Source: Octopus sinensis (lineage: Eukaryota). Taken from it: a stretch of DNA of 64,000 nucleotides. This document shows, piece by piece, positions 1,889 through 59,570 of the stretch. Location: positions 90,892,001 through 90,956,000 of the forward strand of contig NC_043003.1 of NCBI RefSeq assembly GCF_006345805.1, in the 5' to 3' direction. The position numbers and the translations under genes are program-made. Each line of letters opens with the position of its first letter. Within the stretch, counting starts at the first letter, position 1. Under the pieces are notes generated by a model that saw only the letters and a program-made list of their open reading frames with translations, was not told where the DNA came from and made no database searches.

Positions 1889-2093
1889 GTTTCAAATTTT
1901 GGCACAAGGCCAGCAATTTCGGGGAAAAGACTAAGTCAATTAAATCAACCCTAGTCTGCAACTGGTACTTATTTTATTGACCCCCAAAAGGATGAATGAC
2001 AAAAGTGGAATTTGAACCTAGAACGTAAAAACAGATGAAATTCTGCTAAGCATTTTGCACAGCATGCTAACAATTCTACAAGCTCACTGCCCC
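1889..2093 (-). mobile_element. SINE family B copy
   Basis: GGTACTTATTTTATTGACCCCCAAAAGGATGAA...GAATTTGAAC...GCTAAGCATTT...GCTCAC; immediately 5' of the TAA tract carrying the Dong element. Confidence 0.8.
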
Positions 2094-2191
2094 TAATAAT
2101 AATGATATTATTATTAATAATGATATTATTATTAATAATGATATTATTATTAATAATGATAACAACAACAACAATAATAATAATAATGATG

Positions 2192-2236
<45 letters not shown>

Positions 2237-2239
<3 letters not shown>

Positions 2240-4294
2240 TTCAAGGCATTCACTGCAGTGATATCGCAAAGGCTGAACAAGCACCTGGACGAAAACAAAC
2301 TGTTCCCAGAAGAGCAGAAAGGATGCCGCAAGGGCTCATGTGGCTGTAAAGTTCAACTAATGATTAATAAAGCCGTAACTGAAGACAGCCACAGAAAGAA
2401 GAAAGGCCTCAGTATGGCCTGGATTGACTACAAAAAGGCGTTTGATAGCATCCCCCACACATGGATCCTCGAAACACTAGCCATTAACAAAGTAGCACCA
2501 ACAATCATAAAATTCATAGAGCACTCTATGAATAAATGGCAAACAGTCCTACACCTCCAAACAAAAGAGGGACTCATGAAAACCAAAGACATCCCCATTA
2601 GAAGAGGAATATTCCAGGGAGACACGCTCTCTCCACTCCTTTTCTGCTTGGCACTGTCACCTCTATCTGATATGCTAAATAGAACTGGATGCGGATATAA
2701 ATGTTACGGCAAAACGATCAGCCACCTTTTATATATGGATGACCTAAAACTATACGCTGCAAATGACAAACAGCTGGAAACACTATTAAAGACAGTTCAT
2801 GGATTTACCAAAGAAATAGATATGAAATTTGGATTAGAAAAATGCGCCAAAGTAACCATGAAAAGAGGAAAACTAGTTAAGAGTAACAACATCACACTAG
2901 ATAAAACCAATGAAATAAAAGAATTAGACCAAAGCCAAACTTACAAATACTTAGGAATCCATGAACTAGATAAGACACAACACACACAAATGAAAGAGAA
3001 AATAAAAAAAGAATATTATAGACGAGTTAGATCAATACTAAAAACAGAGCTCAATGCTAAAAACAAGATAATAGGTATCAACACTTTAGCTGTCCCAGTT
3101 ATAAGTTACAGCTACAATATCCTTAACTGGACACGAAATGAACTGTCCAAAATAGATAGGAAAACAAGAAAAATACTGACAGGATCTAGGATGCATCACC
3201 CAAAATCTGACATAGAAAGACTATATATACAACGTATAGAAGGTGGTAGAGGCCTTATACAGCTGGAAAACTACTATAAAATAACCACCATAGGACTGCA
3301 AAAATATCTACTTCAGAAGGAAGGAAAACTGATCCAGATAGCGGCAAAACACGAGCAAAACAAAAAACTGTTCTCAGTATTTAAGGAAGCTGACAAATAC
3401 AAACAAGAAATCATACCACCTAATAAACACAAAGAAGAAGAAGAAGATGATGAAGAAACAACAAAAGCTATAAAACAAATGAAATCCAAACTAAAAATAG
3501 AACAGCAACGAACCATGATAAAACGATGGCAAGAAAAGCCCCTTCATGGTAAATACTGCACTAAACTAAACGCAAAAGAAATAGACAAAGAAAAATCCCA
3601 GCAATGGTTGAGAAGCTCAGGACTCAAAGCAGAAACAGAGGGATTTTTAATTGCAGCACAAGACCAAAGCCTCCCCACCAGAAATTACCAAAAACATGTA
3701 ATGAAAAGAAATATTACAAGTAACTGCAGAATATGTGGAGATGGACAAGAAACAATAAATCATATTATCTCTAGCTGCCCAGTCCTGGCTAAGAAGGAAT
3801 ATATTCACAGACATGACAGAGTTGGAACCTACATACATTGGAAGCTATGCCAACATTATGGAATAACAACAGAAAAAAGATGGTATAGGCACACACCAGA
3901 AAAGGTCACAGAAAACGAGAAAGCAACCATACTCTGGGATATGCTGATACACACAGATAGAGAAATTAAGGCCAACAGACCAGATATAGTTGTCAGAGAT
4001 CATGAAGAAAAAAAAATGCTTTCTAATTGATGTATCAATACCGGCAGATGACAACGTGTCTCTAAAAGAAATGGAGAAACTCTCAAAATGCAAAGACCTG
4101 GAAATAGAGGTAACTAGAATGTGGAATCTGAAAACAGAAACAATTCCTATCATAGTAGGTGCATTAGGCATGATAAAAAATATTCAGACAAATACATAAC
4201 AAAAACACCAGGACTTACAAACACATATAACATACAGAAAATTGCACTACTAGGCACTGCACACATCCTACGCAGAACACTTTCCATACAATAA
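2237..4294 (+). pseudogene. RT-RLE polyprotein ORF of the Dong-like element (N-terminally truncated, two homopolymer frameshifts)
   Basis: Open from MFKAFTAV (2237) to an A9 run at 4008-4016 (+1). Continues as CFLIDVSIPADDNV... to an A6 run at 4175-4180 (-1), then YSDKYITKTPGL...RRTLSIQ* with TAA at 4292-4294. The poly-Ile N-terminus of track ORF 2102..4030 is microsatellite. Confidence 0.9.
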
Positions 4295-6001: not shown

Positions 6002-7233
6002 TTGGGACATCCCATAAATAATGCAGTTTTTTATACTTCTTTTTAATCTAAAATATACTCTCCTTCATTTTCTACAATTCTCTTCCATCTATCTGGTAGA
6101 CTTGCAAGGCTCCTTTTCCGAAATTCACTTGCCCACGGTGAAAAATACTTTTCTAGTACTGTTCTGACCTCATCTACAGAATTCATATTTTTTTATCCCA
6201 ATAATTTTGAAAACCATGGAATAAATGATAATCAGATGATGGGGCAATGTCCAGTAAATATGGTGGGTGCGGTATTGTTTCCCATTCAAACTGCTCCAGC
6301 CTTTCGAATGTCATCCTCACTGTATGTAACTGAGCATTATCCTGATGGAAGAACACATTTCATCTTGAAACTAAAGATCATCGATTTTTGTCTAGTACTG
6401 ACGCTGCTCGCAGTAGATCTCCTTTGTTATCATTTGGTTTGGATTTAAAAGTTCAAAGTTCAAACCTTTCATATCCCACCAAACAGATAACAACAACTTA
6501 TGTGGGTGAAAACCTTCTTTAGCCTTGGGTGCCAGTATTTCTCCTTTCCCTACCCACTGTCTTCAGCACTTGACATTTTTATAGATAACTAATTTCTCGT
6601 CACCAGTCACTATTTGGTATAAAAAATGGTTCATTCATGAGATGTGACAGCAAAGAAGAGCACACATTCACTCTCTGAGTGTGATTAGACTTGGAAAGTT
6701 TGTGAGGAACCGAATGACCCAATTTTCTGACTTGCCTGATGGCACGCAGGTGTCGATGAATGGTTGAATGACCAAATCCAAGCTTCTCTGCTAGTTTCTC
6801 AACAGTTACAATGGGATTTTGTTCCACCAGGGTTTGCAGGATGTCCTTGTCAAGCTGTTCATATCTTCCAGGATGAGGCTTGTCTTCTAGTCTGTAGTTT
6901 CTGGCTCGGTACTTTTGGAACCACAGTTGACACTGGCTTATGTTTATTGTCCAATCCCCATTTACTGCATTAATATTCCTTGCACTTTCTGTTGCGTTGT
7001 TGCCATTATTGAACTCATAATACAAAATATGCACCTTTGTCACTTCCATTATAGCTTTAAAAAAATTACTGTTAAAATCGAACTGCATTCTTCAAAACTT
7101 GCACTAAGAATAAGCACAAGGTAAAATTACTACCTGCTTTTATAGCAAGTTGATGCAGGCAGTTTATCCGCCCCCCTCTGACTATTAGTTCATGTAATTG
7201 AAAAAAAAACACATTATTTATGGGATGACCCAA
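6002..7233 (-). mobile_element. Full-length decayed mariner (DD34D) transposon
   Basis: ~30-bp TIRs TTGGGACATCCCATAAATAATG / CATTATTTATGGGATGACCCAA with TA at the right end; ~1.23 kb long. Confidence 0.93.
6043..7049 (-). pseudogene. mariner transposase pseudogene
   Basis: MEVTKVHILYYEFNNGNNATESARNIN (HTH), LEDKPHPGR, SVPHKLS (WVPHEL-like), IVTGDEK, HQDNA, HPPY..DIAP.SDYHLF; contains frameshifts and stops. Confidence 0.9.
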
Positions 7234-34107: not shown

Positions 34108-35005
34108 CAAAGTGCGATGAGTAAATTGTTGCCATTTCATATTTTTAATTTTGTACATGCACATTGTTTGTTTTTGATTTTGTTGACTACACAATATAGT
34201 AGGGTCAGTTGGGCACCATCTGTGAGAAAAACAACACCATAACGCAATTCACTCTGCCAGAAATTTGGAAACGACATGCTGTATTGCATGGCATTTGTGC
34301 TGAAAGCTCCAATACGAACATTTCAGAGTATTTGGGTGTCAACCTGAGGACAGTACAAAGGATTCAGAAAGAGTTGAATGAGTTTAATGGTGAGTATGAA
34401 GGTGTAGTAGCTTGGAAAACTCACTCTGAAGAACTCCTGAATTTGTTGGTGAGATCCAGGACATGATTGACAACAATCCCTCCAAGTCAATCAAGTCTAT
34501 CACCAGGAAATGTCTGAGTTTCTTAGGCAGATAGTGCATGAAAACATTCAGTATTCCTCATACAAGATGAGAAAGGGTCTATTTTTATCCCAAGCCATCA
34601 TGGATAAAAGGAAAGACCAAACAACAAAGCTTTCAAACAAACTCAAGCATCCCCTCCAACTGAACATGCTTTGGTTTTTCTCAGATGAGAAAAATTTTTG
34701 CCAGGATCAGATGGTGAACGCATAGAACAACCATTGGCTTGCCGTGTACCCAAAACATATACCAAGAGTAATAAAATCAAACATCCAGTCAACATTCACA
34801 ACAAGGAGTCCAGAAGAATTACGGGAAATTCGGAAGTCATCTGGAGGCCATGGTTGAAACTAACGGCAATTCTTTTGAATAAATTTACTCTTTAGCATTT
34901 CAAGATATTTTTATGTATTTTTTGTAAATATATCTTTTAAAATGAGATGTCAGTGTTATTTTCATTTTTGCATAATATAGATGACAATTTATTCACCACA
35001 CTCTG
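34108..35005 (+). mobile_element. Internally deleted Tc1/mariner DD37D (maT) element
   Basis: TIRs CAAAGTGCGATGAGTAAATTGT / ACAATTTATTCACCACACTCTG in (TA)n; HTH ISEYLGVNLRTVQRI and first-Asp motif WFFSDEKNF. Confidence 0.85.
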
Positions 35006-55512: not shown

Positions 55513-56851
55513 TATATACATACATATAGATACTCACATTCATGCAGAAAAAAGTTTTTTAATATTTCTTCTCCATGAAGTCTTACTAACATGAAAGGAA
55601 GACCTGGGGAAAAACTTTTATCTTTTCTAGTGAAAGTGGTGACTCTCTATTAAACCTTGATCACACATAATTTATTTTTAATTCTCTAAATCTATGTGTT
55701 TGCTTCCGTTGTTTTTGTTTCTTGCATGAGTTAGAGAGTTCTTGAAAGATATAATTATGAACTAGCAGAAGATGGACTTCACAAATGAACAGATATCTTA
55801 ATGCTAATCATTGCTTATTAAATCACTAATTTGTGAAACCAGTAAGTAGACTTCTAAGCATTTATTTAACCAGATAAATTAATGGGTCCTGCACAGTATC
55901 CCTTAGTAAACTTTATGCTATCTTTGAAATGTAGGCTATTCTCTAAAAGGCTCTAGTGAGGCCCACAATGGTGTAGTGCTACTGCTATATATACAGATAT
56001 CCTGGAAAACATTCTGAGAAGGGTTACTAGACAGAGATTGGTATTCTGTCACTATTGGCATTCTGTCACATGCTTCTGTCTCTGTCTCACAGGTGTACTA
56101 TATCTTCTCACTGTCTTTTCTATTACAACAACAGTTTCTCAAAAATATAAATGCAAACTAATGGAAGAAGGAATTCACACATAAATAGGTTCCTTAATGT
56201 TAACCATTGCTTATTACATTACAATAAAGTGTGAAGCTGGTGAGTGGACTTCCAAGTATCTATTTAATTTCATAAATTTATGACCCTTCAGCAATTTCCC
56301 TGAAGGGTTATTATTAACTGACATTATTATTGCCTAAAACCCAACAAACAACTCTTTGACAATGCAGCACTAAAAAGAAAGTGAAGAGGTGCATAAAAGT
56401 AATTCCTACAACTAGCAAATCATAAATATAATTAGATCATCCCCCTAAAAACACAGATCATACCACTCCTGGAATTATGTGTGTGGATTTGGTGTATAGT
56501 TAAAAACAAAGAAGTACCAATATATTTATTATTATCCCAATGAAAGTGTCTGAGAATAAAACAAATTAGGAACATGACAAGAATTGACCAATGAACAAAC
56601 ATCACAACAAATAAACTTCATGAACAAGATTATGAGTGTGTGTATGTGTGTGAGGGGAAAAGGGGGTTACATACCATAAAATATTTACATATATAATGAA
56701 CAAGAGACAGGTAATTCTGAACAATGGGATCATATATATGTGTGTGCGCTTGTGTACACATATACATATATATATATACACATACATACAAACACGCACA
56801 CACATATAGTGTGTATGTGTGTGTATCTCTCTCTCTCTATATATATATATA

Positions 56852-56902
<51 letters not shown>

Positions 56903-57042
56903 CAATTAAGATTCAAGTCAATTCTAATGAATTCACTTGAATACGGTACTTAACTTAGATGCACCAGAAAACTATATGGTGTTAACCATACAGTAATGTG
57001 GGGTGATTATAAACGAGAAAGAAGCAACAAGAATGGATTAGT

Positions 57043-57133
57043 TTTTAGTACAATTGTTTCATACAAAGACAGGCTTTATTAACAGTTGCAAATATTGCAG
57101 CAGATAAAAGTGTCCCGTACTCATCAGCTAAAA
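57043..57133 (-). ncRNA. Type I hammerhead ribozyme, intact core
   Basis: Minus strand TTTTAG-CTGATGA-GTAC[60-nt stem II]GTAT-GAAA-CAATTG-TA-CTAAAA. Confidence 0.85.
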
Positions 57134-58208
57134 CACATATGAGTTCTCCAACCATCTTAGTGGGTGAGGCTACACTCATGAAGTATTGGAGATAATTTCA
57201 TAATTAAGGCTTCATAATTCTATTACAAAATTAAATAAGTAATGCTGCTCCCTTGAAAGTAGTATAAGAAATTTCAATATAATAAGCAATTCCCTCACAC
57301 CTTGTAAACTGACTTCTAAGTATTGACCTGTAGTCTGTCAATGTATAGATAGTAACGACAACAATTTAAGACAGTAACAGTAATAAATAAATAAATTTAA
57401 ATGACCTCTTGCTAGTATTGCACTTATTTTCTCTTAATGTATTTCCATTTGATGATAACCTTTGACCCCTCTATCCCTGACCTTGTTATCTCTTTAGATT
57501 CTCGTATCTGCTTTCAGCTACGTCAGGTTGGCAATAAATAGCTGTTTACTGGTCAAAAATAATATTCTCCTTATAGTTCTTAGATTCCTGCAAATTCGAA
57601 GCCAGCCAGGCTGTCTACAAACTTTTCTGTGTAGTGGGTTACCTGCGACCCTTTTCCCTCTCAGTTGTCACAGCATACTCTATGTAGGCGTTTTTTCTTT
57701 TTTCCCTTTTTTCTTTTTTCTTTTTCTTTTTTCTTTTCTTCTCCCCTTTTTTCTTTTTCTTTTTTCTTTTTTTCTTTTTTCTTTTTTCCTTTTTCCTTGT
57801 TTCTTTTCTTCTCTTTCCTTTCTTTTCTTTTCTTTGCTCCACAAAAATTCCTTCAGCCTTTAGAAGTCATAACATAGCAGTCTTGTGAAGAGAACAGTAA
57901 TGTGGCAAATACCTTATCATATAGCATGAAATTATACCCACCTCATTGTGGATTAACCATGGATAAATTCATCATCTGTGAGTATGAAACACCTCCTCAT
58001 ATCTCTGGAAATTTACACCTATACTACGGATTAATTCACCTTCTCTGTGAAGCTAATAAGCTTTTTAAAACCTGTGATCAGACTGTGCATCATCATTAAA
58101 GAACTTCGGAAGTCTGTTTACAACCTGAATCTGCTTTTAATGAAATTATCTCCAATACTTCATGAGTGTAGGCCTCACCCACTAAGATGTTTGGAGAACT
58201 CATATGTA

Positions 58209-58299
58209 TTTTAGCTGATGAGTACGGGACACTTTTATCTGCTGCAATATTTGCAACTTTTAATAAAGCCTGTCTTTGTATGAAACAATTGTACTAAAA
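58209..58299 (+). ncRNA. Type I hammerhead ribozyme, intact core
   Basis: TTTTAG-CTGATGA-GTACGGGACA...TGTCTTTGTAT-GAAA-CAATTG-TA-CTAAAA; 6-bp stem I, palindromic stem III ACAATTGT, predicted cut after GUA at 58293. Confidence 0.88.
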
Positions 58300-58385
58300 A
58301 CTAATCCATTCTTGTTGCTTCTTTCTCGTATATATATATGTGTGGTGTGTGTGTGTGTGCGTGTGTGTGTGTGTGTGTGTATATG

Positions 58386-58482
<97 letters not shown>

Positions 58483-58503
58483 CATACATACATATACATA
58501 TAC

Positions 58504-58558
<55 letters not shown>

Positions 58559-58570
58559 TAAATATATGCA

Positions 58571-59285
58571 CAGAGTGCGGTGAATAAATTGTCGCCTAAA
58601 TTACGCAAAAAGGAAAATAACACTGACATCTCATTTTAACAGATATATTTACCAAAATTGCCTTTAGTTCATATTTGATGTTACAAGGAGTTTTGTAGGT
58701 CTCTCGCTCAACTGTGCCCCATACATAATAATCAAGGGGATTGCAGTCTGGGGAGTTAGGTGGCTAGATGTTAGGGGTGATGTGGATACAAAAATTGTCT
58801 GACAGCCACAACTGGGTTTTCCTTCTGGTGTGGCATGGCACAGAGTCCTGTTGCCAGCAGCCACCCTCTTGACCCAGGGCAGCAATACTTCCTCCAGGCA
58901 CCTGATGAAGGCCTCCATGTTGAGTCTGAGGCCATGTGGGAAGATGAATGGAGGCATAATGTCATCATAACTAGTGATCAGTCCCAACATCATGATGTTA
59001 GCTGGATGTTTGATTTTTATCACTCAGTACATATCCTCAGATTGCACTGTCCTCAGATCGACACCCAAATACTCTGAAATGTTCATATTGTACTTTCCAG
59101 CCCAAATGCCAAGCAGTACAGCATGTTGTTTCCAAATTTTTGGCAGAGTGAATTGCGTGAGTGTGCTGTCTTTCTCACAGACAGTGCCCAAGTGACCCTA
59201 CAATACTGTGTAGTCAACAACATCAAAAACAAACAACGTGCATGCATGAAAAAAAAAAGCGACAATTTATCCATCATACCCTCTA
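58571..59285 (-). mobile_element. Second deleted DD37D (maT) copy, same family as 34108-35005
   Basis: TIR CAGAGTGCGGTGAATAAATTGTCGC; WQQDSVPCH...PPNSPDCNPLDYYVW with 37 residues between the two Asp. Confidence 0.88.
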
Positions 59286-59570
59286 TACATACACACACAC
59301 AAGCTTATTCTTTTTGTTCTCTTTTGTGATGAAACAAGTTGCAACATGTGTGTCTGAGGACATAAAAACAACTTAGTTAATGAATACATCAAAAGCAGTA
59401 TTGTAATTAAACTTAAATGTCTTGACAAACTGAAGTTATTCAACGTCAAAGACCTACTGTGAAGGTGTTACACACACCCCGACACACACACACACTCACA
59501 CACAAATATATATAAATATACATGCATGTATATATGGACATATACATGCACATATATATACACATGCATG

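Follow-up and report, generated by a model that had tools for sequence, protein, structure and literature searches.

A probable Penelope-type insertion of the Hydra clade accounts for two outward-facing hammerhead motifs in the Octopus sinensis genome

The window analysed here, a stretch of 64,000 nucleotides from Octopus sinensis, contains two inverted arms, each bearing the motifs of a type I hammerhead, which flank an interior of 935 bp and are enclosed by microsatellites (Table 1). A first-pass annotation had taken the whole to be a self-contained element of 1.3 kb with inverted arms of about 190 bp and about 98% identity, and the arms are indeed as described, extending over 57007-57201 and 58140-58334 and matching at 190 of 194 aligned positions, with a single gap of 1 nt. 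The bounds that it gave, 57013 and 58329, hold on the right, but on the left the copy goes about 113 nt past 57013, to about 56898, through sequence that corresponds to the "tail" of its family. The central junction, at which 57201 and 57205 are linked by a filler of 3 nt, has a single match in the 2.7 Gb searched, with up to two mismatches allowed, and because it is found only once in the genome the locus is a one-off, 5'-truncated insertion. This removes the self-contained element and leaves the layout of a standard tail-to-tail insertion of a Penelope-type element, or PLE (PMC8557442; PMC4209133). A target-site duplication was looked for, and both ends of the locus merge into TA repeats. 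In the flanks, a degenerate direct repeat lies to the left of the element (55737-55884 and 56133-56282, 73% identical over 150 nt, at a spacing of 396 nt), and a likely Tc1/mariner-type remnant (58568-59330) starts just to the right of the microsatellite; a minus-strand frame at 58667-59023 appears transposase-like by eye and is without a Pfam match.

Table 1. Coordinates of the features at the locus, in positions of the window
Feature	Position	Strand	Remark
(TA)14 target microsatellite, tailed (left) end	56871..56898		TA repeats also at tailed and short ends of fetched loci
PLE "tail" of the inverted copy, about 113 nt	56898..57012	-	
Inverted copy, more heavily 5'-truncated	57013..57201	-	left arm, pLTR with hammerhead
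Left type I hammerhead	57043..57133	-	all motifs intact; predicted cut between 57049 and 57048
AATAAA in domain II of the left hammerhead	57080-57075	-	
Filler at the tail-to-tail junction, 3 nt	57202..57204		junction genome-unique
3' non-coding region of a Hydra-clade PLE	57205..58139	+	pyrimidine-rich tract within
Right arm (pLTR)	58140..58329	+	stops at the short end of the family, 36 nt past the predicted cut
Right type I hammerhead	58209..58299	+	predicted cut 58293/58294
Right hammerhead, stem I (TTTTAG/CTAAAA)	58209-58214/58294-58299	+	
Right hammerhead, core CTGATGA	58215-58221	+	
Right hammerhead, domain II, 60 nt	58222-58281	+	
AATAAA within right domain II	58262..58267	+	candidate poly(A) signal, 26 nt before the predicted cut
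Right hammerhead, GAAA	58282-58285	+	
Right hammerhead, GAAACAATTGTA	58282-58293	+	GAAA, palindrome and GUA triplet
Right hammerhead, stem III palindrome ACAATTGT	58285-58292	+	
(TA)n/(TG)n microsatellite, short (right) end	58330..58538		

The interior had been annotated as lacking a recognisable open reading frame, which is correct; the sequence is PLE 3' UTR, collinear with that of the parent, and this explains the lack. Copies that extend 5' of 57205 continue for about 270 nt, then reach the stop codon of a GIY-YIG ORF and, further up, a reverse transcriptase (RT), so that the 5' truncation of the locus falls about 270 nt after that stop. A first look at the genome gave 1751, 688 and 1528 candidates for the arm and the two halves of the interior, and among the 40 scored for each the best copies were 95-99% identical. 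The arm and interior are thus high-copy and have sisters with RT and GIY-YIG, in agreement with the anticipated link to full-length Penelope-type elements; among the loci fetched, the youngest subfamily had no full-length copy. The sister subfamilies form partial tandems of 4.2-4.7 kb, in the order 3' UTR (1.2-1.7 kb in this family), hammerhead, tail and then an ATG 208-210 nt past the cut, with the start of the ORF about 60 nt beyond the tail.

The parent element has a single ORF, combining an RT with a C-terminal GIY-YIG, for which Pfam support is weak (no family for the ORF of L068, and for L069 only a sub-cutoff match to RVT_1, E 2.9e-4). Open frames of 947 aa (L103) and 699 aa (L068) carry the motifs QFDI, MGS and YRDD as well as C-terminal IY..YIG motifs. 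The Hydra clade is described in section 11 of PMC8557442 by RWK, DKT, a CxCX5C linker, the lack of a CCHH motif and a CxxC/CxH arrangement around E and N, and it is from motifs read against that section that we assign the octopus family to the clade. Specifically, the N-terminal RWK is found as IRWK in L103, as IRWR in L100 and as IRWA in the more distant family (L153); DKG is replaced by DKT, with PADKT in all seven rows that cover the region; and the linker reads CKCRIKSKC, CNCRIKSKC and CNCRCASEC in L103, L100 and L153, with its third Cys mutated in L068. There is no CCHH; by eye, the GIY-YIG core holds one Cys and not two, and E and N are flanked as CQLC..E..N..CVH. The preference for (TA)n targets is also evident among the fetched loci, where TA repeats adjoin 59 of 62 ends of the short type and 47 of 49 of the tailed type, in a count that leaves out a third class of ends in which internal pLTRs and misclassified ends are mixed. 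These likenesses, together with the type I hammerhead and its palindromic stem III, place the family beside Hydra-1_Obim and Penelope-13_HM (Craig et al. 2021, PMC8557442), although the sequence of its hammerhead is unlike that of Hydra-1_oBim. It is further set apart by its length, the units of 4.2-4.8 kb exceeding the generally less than 3 kb of the clade, which is a descriptive and not a strict trait; by an ORF of 842 to more than 1000 aa with two Asn-rich inserts, and by its 3' UTR; by a domain II of 51-60 nt, where the 26 published rows, judged by eye, have about 24 nt at most; and by a tail of about 113 nt instead of 30-40 bp (PMC8557442).

Both arms match the pattern of a type I hammerhead (core CUGANGA, GAAA, UH and stems I-III), and the gapped motif has 2,298 exact matches in the genome against none for a reversed control, far more than chance would give; the two intact, outward-facing motifs of the first-pass reading are real. 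That reading left unmentioned the 60 nt between CUGAUGA and GAAA, and it is likely this enlarged domain II that explains why Rfam called no hammerhead, either at the gathering score over the window or at E<=10 over the locus. For the isolated motif the constrained hammerhead fold has an energy of -10.1 kcal/mol and the minimum-energy fold one of -12.8 kcal/mol, which are 2.7 apart, and since the motif folds no better than its shuffles (z about 0) folding energies alone lend no support. In an alignment of 12 representatives, drawn from the subfamilies and one distant family, 91% of cells pair compared with 34-47% in slid controls, and two-sided changes are seen at 4 of 6 pairs in stem I, 2 of 7 in the apical hairpin and 2 of 4 in the palindrome; as the representatives are related and were chosen with pairing filters, this count leans toward structure. 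The outer part of stem II shows one-sided changes only and no two-sided change in the same alignment.

The palindrome noted at stem III is real (ACAATTGT), and its variants ACAAUUGU, ACGAUUGU, ACGAUCGU and ACAUAUGU stay self-complementary in cases in which a stem formed within one molecule would leave a loop of just 2 or 0 nt. This fits a dimer between molecules, and the variants provide natural evidence for dimeric hammerheads. The covariation of stems I and III, with a palindrome kept throughout the representatives, therefore predicts a ribozyme of the dimer type, in line with the earlier proposal of Penelope-type hammerheads that need a dimer. At the locus itself the two hammerheads lie on opposite strands and face outward, so any transcript would have one sense copy and could form no dimer in cis. 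Moreover, pairing of the arms with one another, at -323 kcal/mol against about -10 for the constrained hammerhead, would far outcompete folding of the ribozyme, as had been supposed. The likely role of the hammerhead is in processing the RNA of the parent element, as a weak ribozyme assisted by dimerization or by protein. Metazoan PLE hammerheads, which cut poorly in vitro (PMC11167929; PMC4209133), similarly are of type I, lie in the pLTR, occur as pairs on opposite strands 100-700 bp apart and have a palindromic helix III with a predicted dimer and low, dimer-dependent cleavage (Cervera and de la Pena 2014, PMC4209133); for the octopus copies cleavage is predicted from sequence. They differ from the octopus hammerheads in helix II, which in the latter belongs to a much larger domain with an internal loop, an apical hairpin and an AWTAAA hexamer.

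How common such inverted pairs are was estimated from the first 100 of the 2,298 motif matches, all on one contig and falling into 69 clusters. Among the matches listed, 27 clusters are outward-facing pairs, 4 are same-strand pairs and 38 are single, none of the 69 being an inward-facing pair; the spacing of the 27 outward pairs ranges from 257 to 7786 nt, with a median of 947. By extrapolation there would be some 600-620 outward pairs in the genome, and hundreds of loci resembling this one can be expected in Octopus sinensis. In the fetched loci, the one inward adjacency lies between two duplicated pairs (L054/L058).

The family has two types of end, a short one about 36 nt past the predicted cut and a tailed one about 113 nt further, and the length of the tail makes both easy to score. 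The fetched loci, which are best hits and not a random sample, gave 40 distinct outward pairs, of which 6 were dropped as one of their hammerheads belongs to an internal pLTR followed by an ORF. One tailed and one short end were found in 33 of the 34 remaining, terminal pairs, with one pair having two tailed ends and none two short ones; this is an excess of mixed ends at p of about 4e-9 relative to a 50:50 expectation, and the count becomes 32 of 33 if both pairs of L054 are one event. The tailed arm is the longer in 21 pairs and the shorter in 12, and the inverted repeat measures 18-1549 nt in the 37 of 40 pairs for which its length was obtained. The traits of PLE insertions are present, namely partial tandems (pLTR), an inverted 5'-truncated copy and a tail at one end. 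In the account of PMC8557442, typical PLE insertions likewise are inverted 5'-truncated copies with a tail of 30-40 bp, often at one end only, and its supplement includes Penelope-13_HM, in which the inverted copy is 5'-truncated and each of the two strands bears a hammerhead. The same paper names the mechanism of inverted insertion an open task, for which the mixed ends of 33 in 34 pairs are a quantitative constraint.

One possibility is that the inverted arm is a copy of the first cDNA made through fold-back or template switching, or that the DNA was rearranged afterwards, with no second priming event. It would explain why no pair mixes subfamilies among the 23 compared base for base, and why the arms agree at shared polymorphisms in 18 of these, the other 5, this locus included, differing at one site; the same agreement also speaks for the reading preferred below. 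However, the site at which the present arms differ, 57134, is polymorphic within the young subfamily (41 C, 26 T), and the 113-nt tail is on the left arm and missing from the right, so that neither arm was copied whole from the other; the same asymmetry of tailed and short ends recurs in 33 of 34 pairs. We therefore regard such copying or rearrangement as quite unlikely.

The reading we prefer, with a probability of about 0.92, is that the locus stems from one non-coding insertion of a Hydra-clade PLE, in which a 5'-truncated copy and a shorter inverted one were placed tail to tail in (TA)n, likely through two-sided priming of cDNA. The identity of the family, the truncation, the tail, the unique junction, the target and the conservation of the motif are shown by the data, while the course of the insertion is inferred. 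By analogy with the PLE of the anole, whose protein cuts and extends both strands and is a predicted dimer (PMC11167929), a dimeric PLE protein would cut both strands of the target, and the RT-endonuclease would prime one cDNA from each side. One cDNA would start at the site of the short end (36 nt beyond the hammerhead cut), the other at that of the long end (about 150 nt beyond); both would end early and then be joined through the 3-nt filler. As each cDNA starts just past the hammerhead of the pLTR, two outward-facing hammerheads would result automatically. RNA that reads through the locus is predicted to fold back into a duplex of about 195 bp, in which the ribozyme would be silenced and which would be a likely ADAR substrate. 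The locus is ordinary transposon debris and its layout a known by-product of PLE integration.

The closest parallel for the two ends is Poseidon PAc of Anolis, in which RT starts at two sites that bracket the tail downstream of the hammerhead and the targets are AT-rich (Frangieh et al. 2024, PMC11167929). No strand difference in the site at which RT starts was observed there, and the hammerhead is described as protein-assisted and dispensable for insertion in vitro. Insertions of both PAc and the octopus family reach past the cut site, which indicates that the template is uncleaved RNA. PAc belongs to a different clade, its ORF starts within the hammerhead whereas the octopus ATG comes 208-210 nt after the cut, and its tail is about three times shorter.

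None of the sequencing runs is recorded as RNA; contigs from 4 of the 24 listed, these 4 being guessed to be RNA, were compared with the left part of the locus, over 56905-57650. One from run X1 (record 6; 57172-57596, depth 41.6, 0 differences) carries the junction, its 30 letters of arm sequence being one fewer than the 31-letter rule asks for. Another, from run X5 of organism B (record 19; 57097-57380, depth 4.7), bridges the junction with 13 differences and appears to retain the C at 57152 peculiar to this left arm (1 of 64 young copies). Of its differences, four are listed in the arm, each a T>C (57129, 57138, 57157 and 57171), and one in the 176 nt of interior; the remaining eight are unlisted and, given the 10% listing limit, presumably lie in the arm. 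The four changes occur in 0 of 67, 0 of 67, 0 of 64 and 1 of 64 young genomic copies, two of them being present in older subfamilies, and their enrichment in the arm has a Fisher p of 4e-5 if 12 lie there and 0.019 for the four visible. As a single contig of depth below 5 that has no matched DNA, it gives a hint of A-to-I editing, in a fold-back transcript of the minus strand. The double-stranded RNA for ADAR or Dicer envisaged by the first-pass annotation accordingly has this weak hint on the side of ADAR. A further and frequent T>C, at 57055, was rejected as editing and is a genomic variant of a sister subfamily (57 of 76 older copies). Contig depth in X1 and X2, and not in X5 and X7, drops close to the predicted cut; as contigs cannot show ends, this is given no weight. 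In run X2, a contig of depth 9.8 has four T>C clustered at 57038-57044, within the 3' strand of stem I and next to it, and at two of the sites this change is missing from 150 and 148 fetched genomic copies; this cluster may reflect editing of some copy of the family and is not locus-specific.

Whether the locus has been co-opted, with the hammerhead or the duplex controlling a host transcript through cleavage or through ADAR/Dicer processing, has to be considered given that the junction-bearing contigs of X1 and X5 come from runs guessed to be RNA, a status that is itself a guess. A Pfam scan of the window and 100 kb on each side found no host exon in 150 of the 225 long frames of the window or in 58 of 1172 candidates ranked by composition over window and flanks, and returned only RT, mariner HTH, DDE and hAT families, although short exons of a very long gene could escape such a scan. 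Together with the poor cutting of metazoan PLE hammerheads in vitro, this leaves the suggestion that an intronic copy cleaves host pre-mRNA without support. The copy is also young, its pair being among about 600 of the kind, and editing of inverted repeats, already reported for cases that include a lizard Penelope and with a high signal in octopus (PMC5625713), is a default fate in animals that implies no function. Co-option is for these reasons very unlikely. Elsewhere in the window there is a LINE RT remnant at 2039-4027 (plus strand), and transposase-type HTH remnants lie at 6603-7091 (minus) and 34203-34463 (plus).

That the 1.3-kb unit is itself mobile, as a MITE-like or retrozyme-like non-autonomous element with hammerhead-bearing TIRs, is barely tenable, for while the near-identical arms of about 190 bp and the interior without an ORF would suit it, the junction is unique in 2.7 Gb, the left end extends 113 nt past the repeat, arm length and spacing vary at every locus and the interior is collinear with the 3' UTR of the parent. 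A DNA transposon with TIRs, the alternative against which the first-pass annotation had set its own, was rejected, since the repeat is not terminal on the left, there is no fixed unit and the junction is unique. Non-LTR retrozymes share with the locus that they are non-coding, PLE-related and of hammerhead type I (bioRxiv 10.64898/2026.07.22.740005), but they form head-to-tail tandems whereas the locus is a one-off tail-to-tail truncation product with no head-to-tail array, and this candidate was likewise rejected.

The enlarged domain II measures 51-60 nt across representatives of the family. In all 10 that were folded it contains an AATAAA or ATTAAA whose last base lies 17-26 nt ahead of the predicted cut, and a tract of 42-57% U follows the hexamer. 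Shuffles of domain II from four sequences, which share ancestry, place such a hexamer equally far from the cut in 0.9-2.8% of trials. A tentative and on balance doubtful proposal is that in octopus Hydra-clade PLEs a poly(A) signal is built into domain II, where cleavage/polyadenylation would compete with dimer-dependent cutting by the ribozyme for what is almost one bond. Against it, six further such hexamers lie upstream in the 3' UTR of the window; a TATA-like role in the promoter of the pLTR was considered as an alternative. No poly(A) tail was seen among 24 of 35 loose contig ends, and contigs cannot show its absence. Five of the 26 published Hydra rows (PMC8557442, supplement), judged by eye, instead place a hexamer of this kind immediately 5' of the hammerhead. 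If the proposal were true, the family would possess a switch between a capped, polyadenylated mRNA and an uncut read-through RNA serving as the template for RT, and the roughly 600 outward-facing pairs would constitute a large, young supply of ADAR substrates in which editing may disable the ribozyme. In either case, the conserved AWTAAA in domain II offers a testable idea of how PLE hammerheads function. The literature outside subscription journals and Repbase yielded no paper on a retrotransposon hammerhead with AAUAAA in stem II and none linking a Penelope hammerhead to a polyadenylation signal, the one review returned dealing with CLEC2; for octopus hammerheads or the Hydra clade, PMC8557442 was the sole relevant paper found within the same scope, and the accessible text of an octopus repeat paper (PMC13282606) makes no mention of Hydra or hammerheads.

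Further PLE sequences were noted among the fetched loci. A second, more distant octopus family of Hydra type is represented by L151-L159 (for example L153:2283-4808 and L158:6448-6574) and has open frames of 842 aa about 50% identical to L103. Its domain II measures 51 nt and presents AATAAA, 17 nt ahead of the predicted cut, in a bulge predicted to be unpaired; its palindrome is ACATATGT, and its ends follow the short and tailed pattern of the first family. A different PLE at L065:5310-9016, which looks Neptune-like, has the RT motifs PKVHK and LRPII, a CxxC pair in its GIY-YIG core and an ORF of 479 aa upstream. Finally, an octopus protein annotated as ankyrin-repeat (P0001) is 68% identical to the RT region of the family over half of the query, and is either a gene model or a gene that has absorbed a piece of the PLE.
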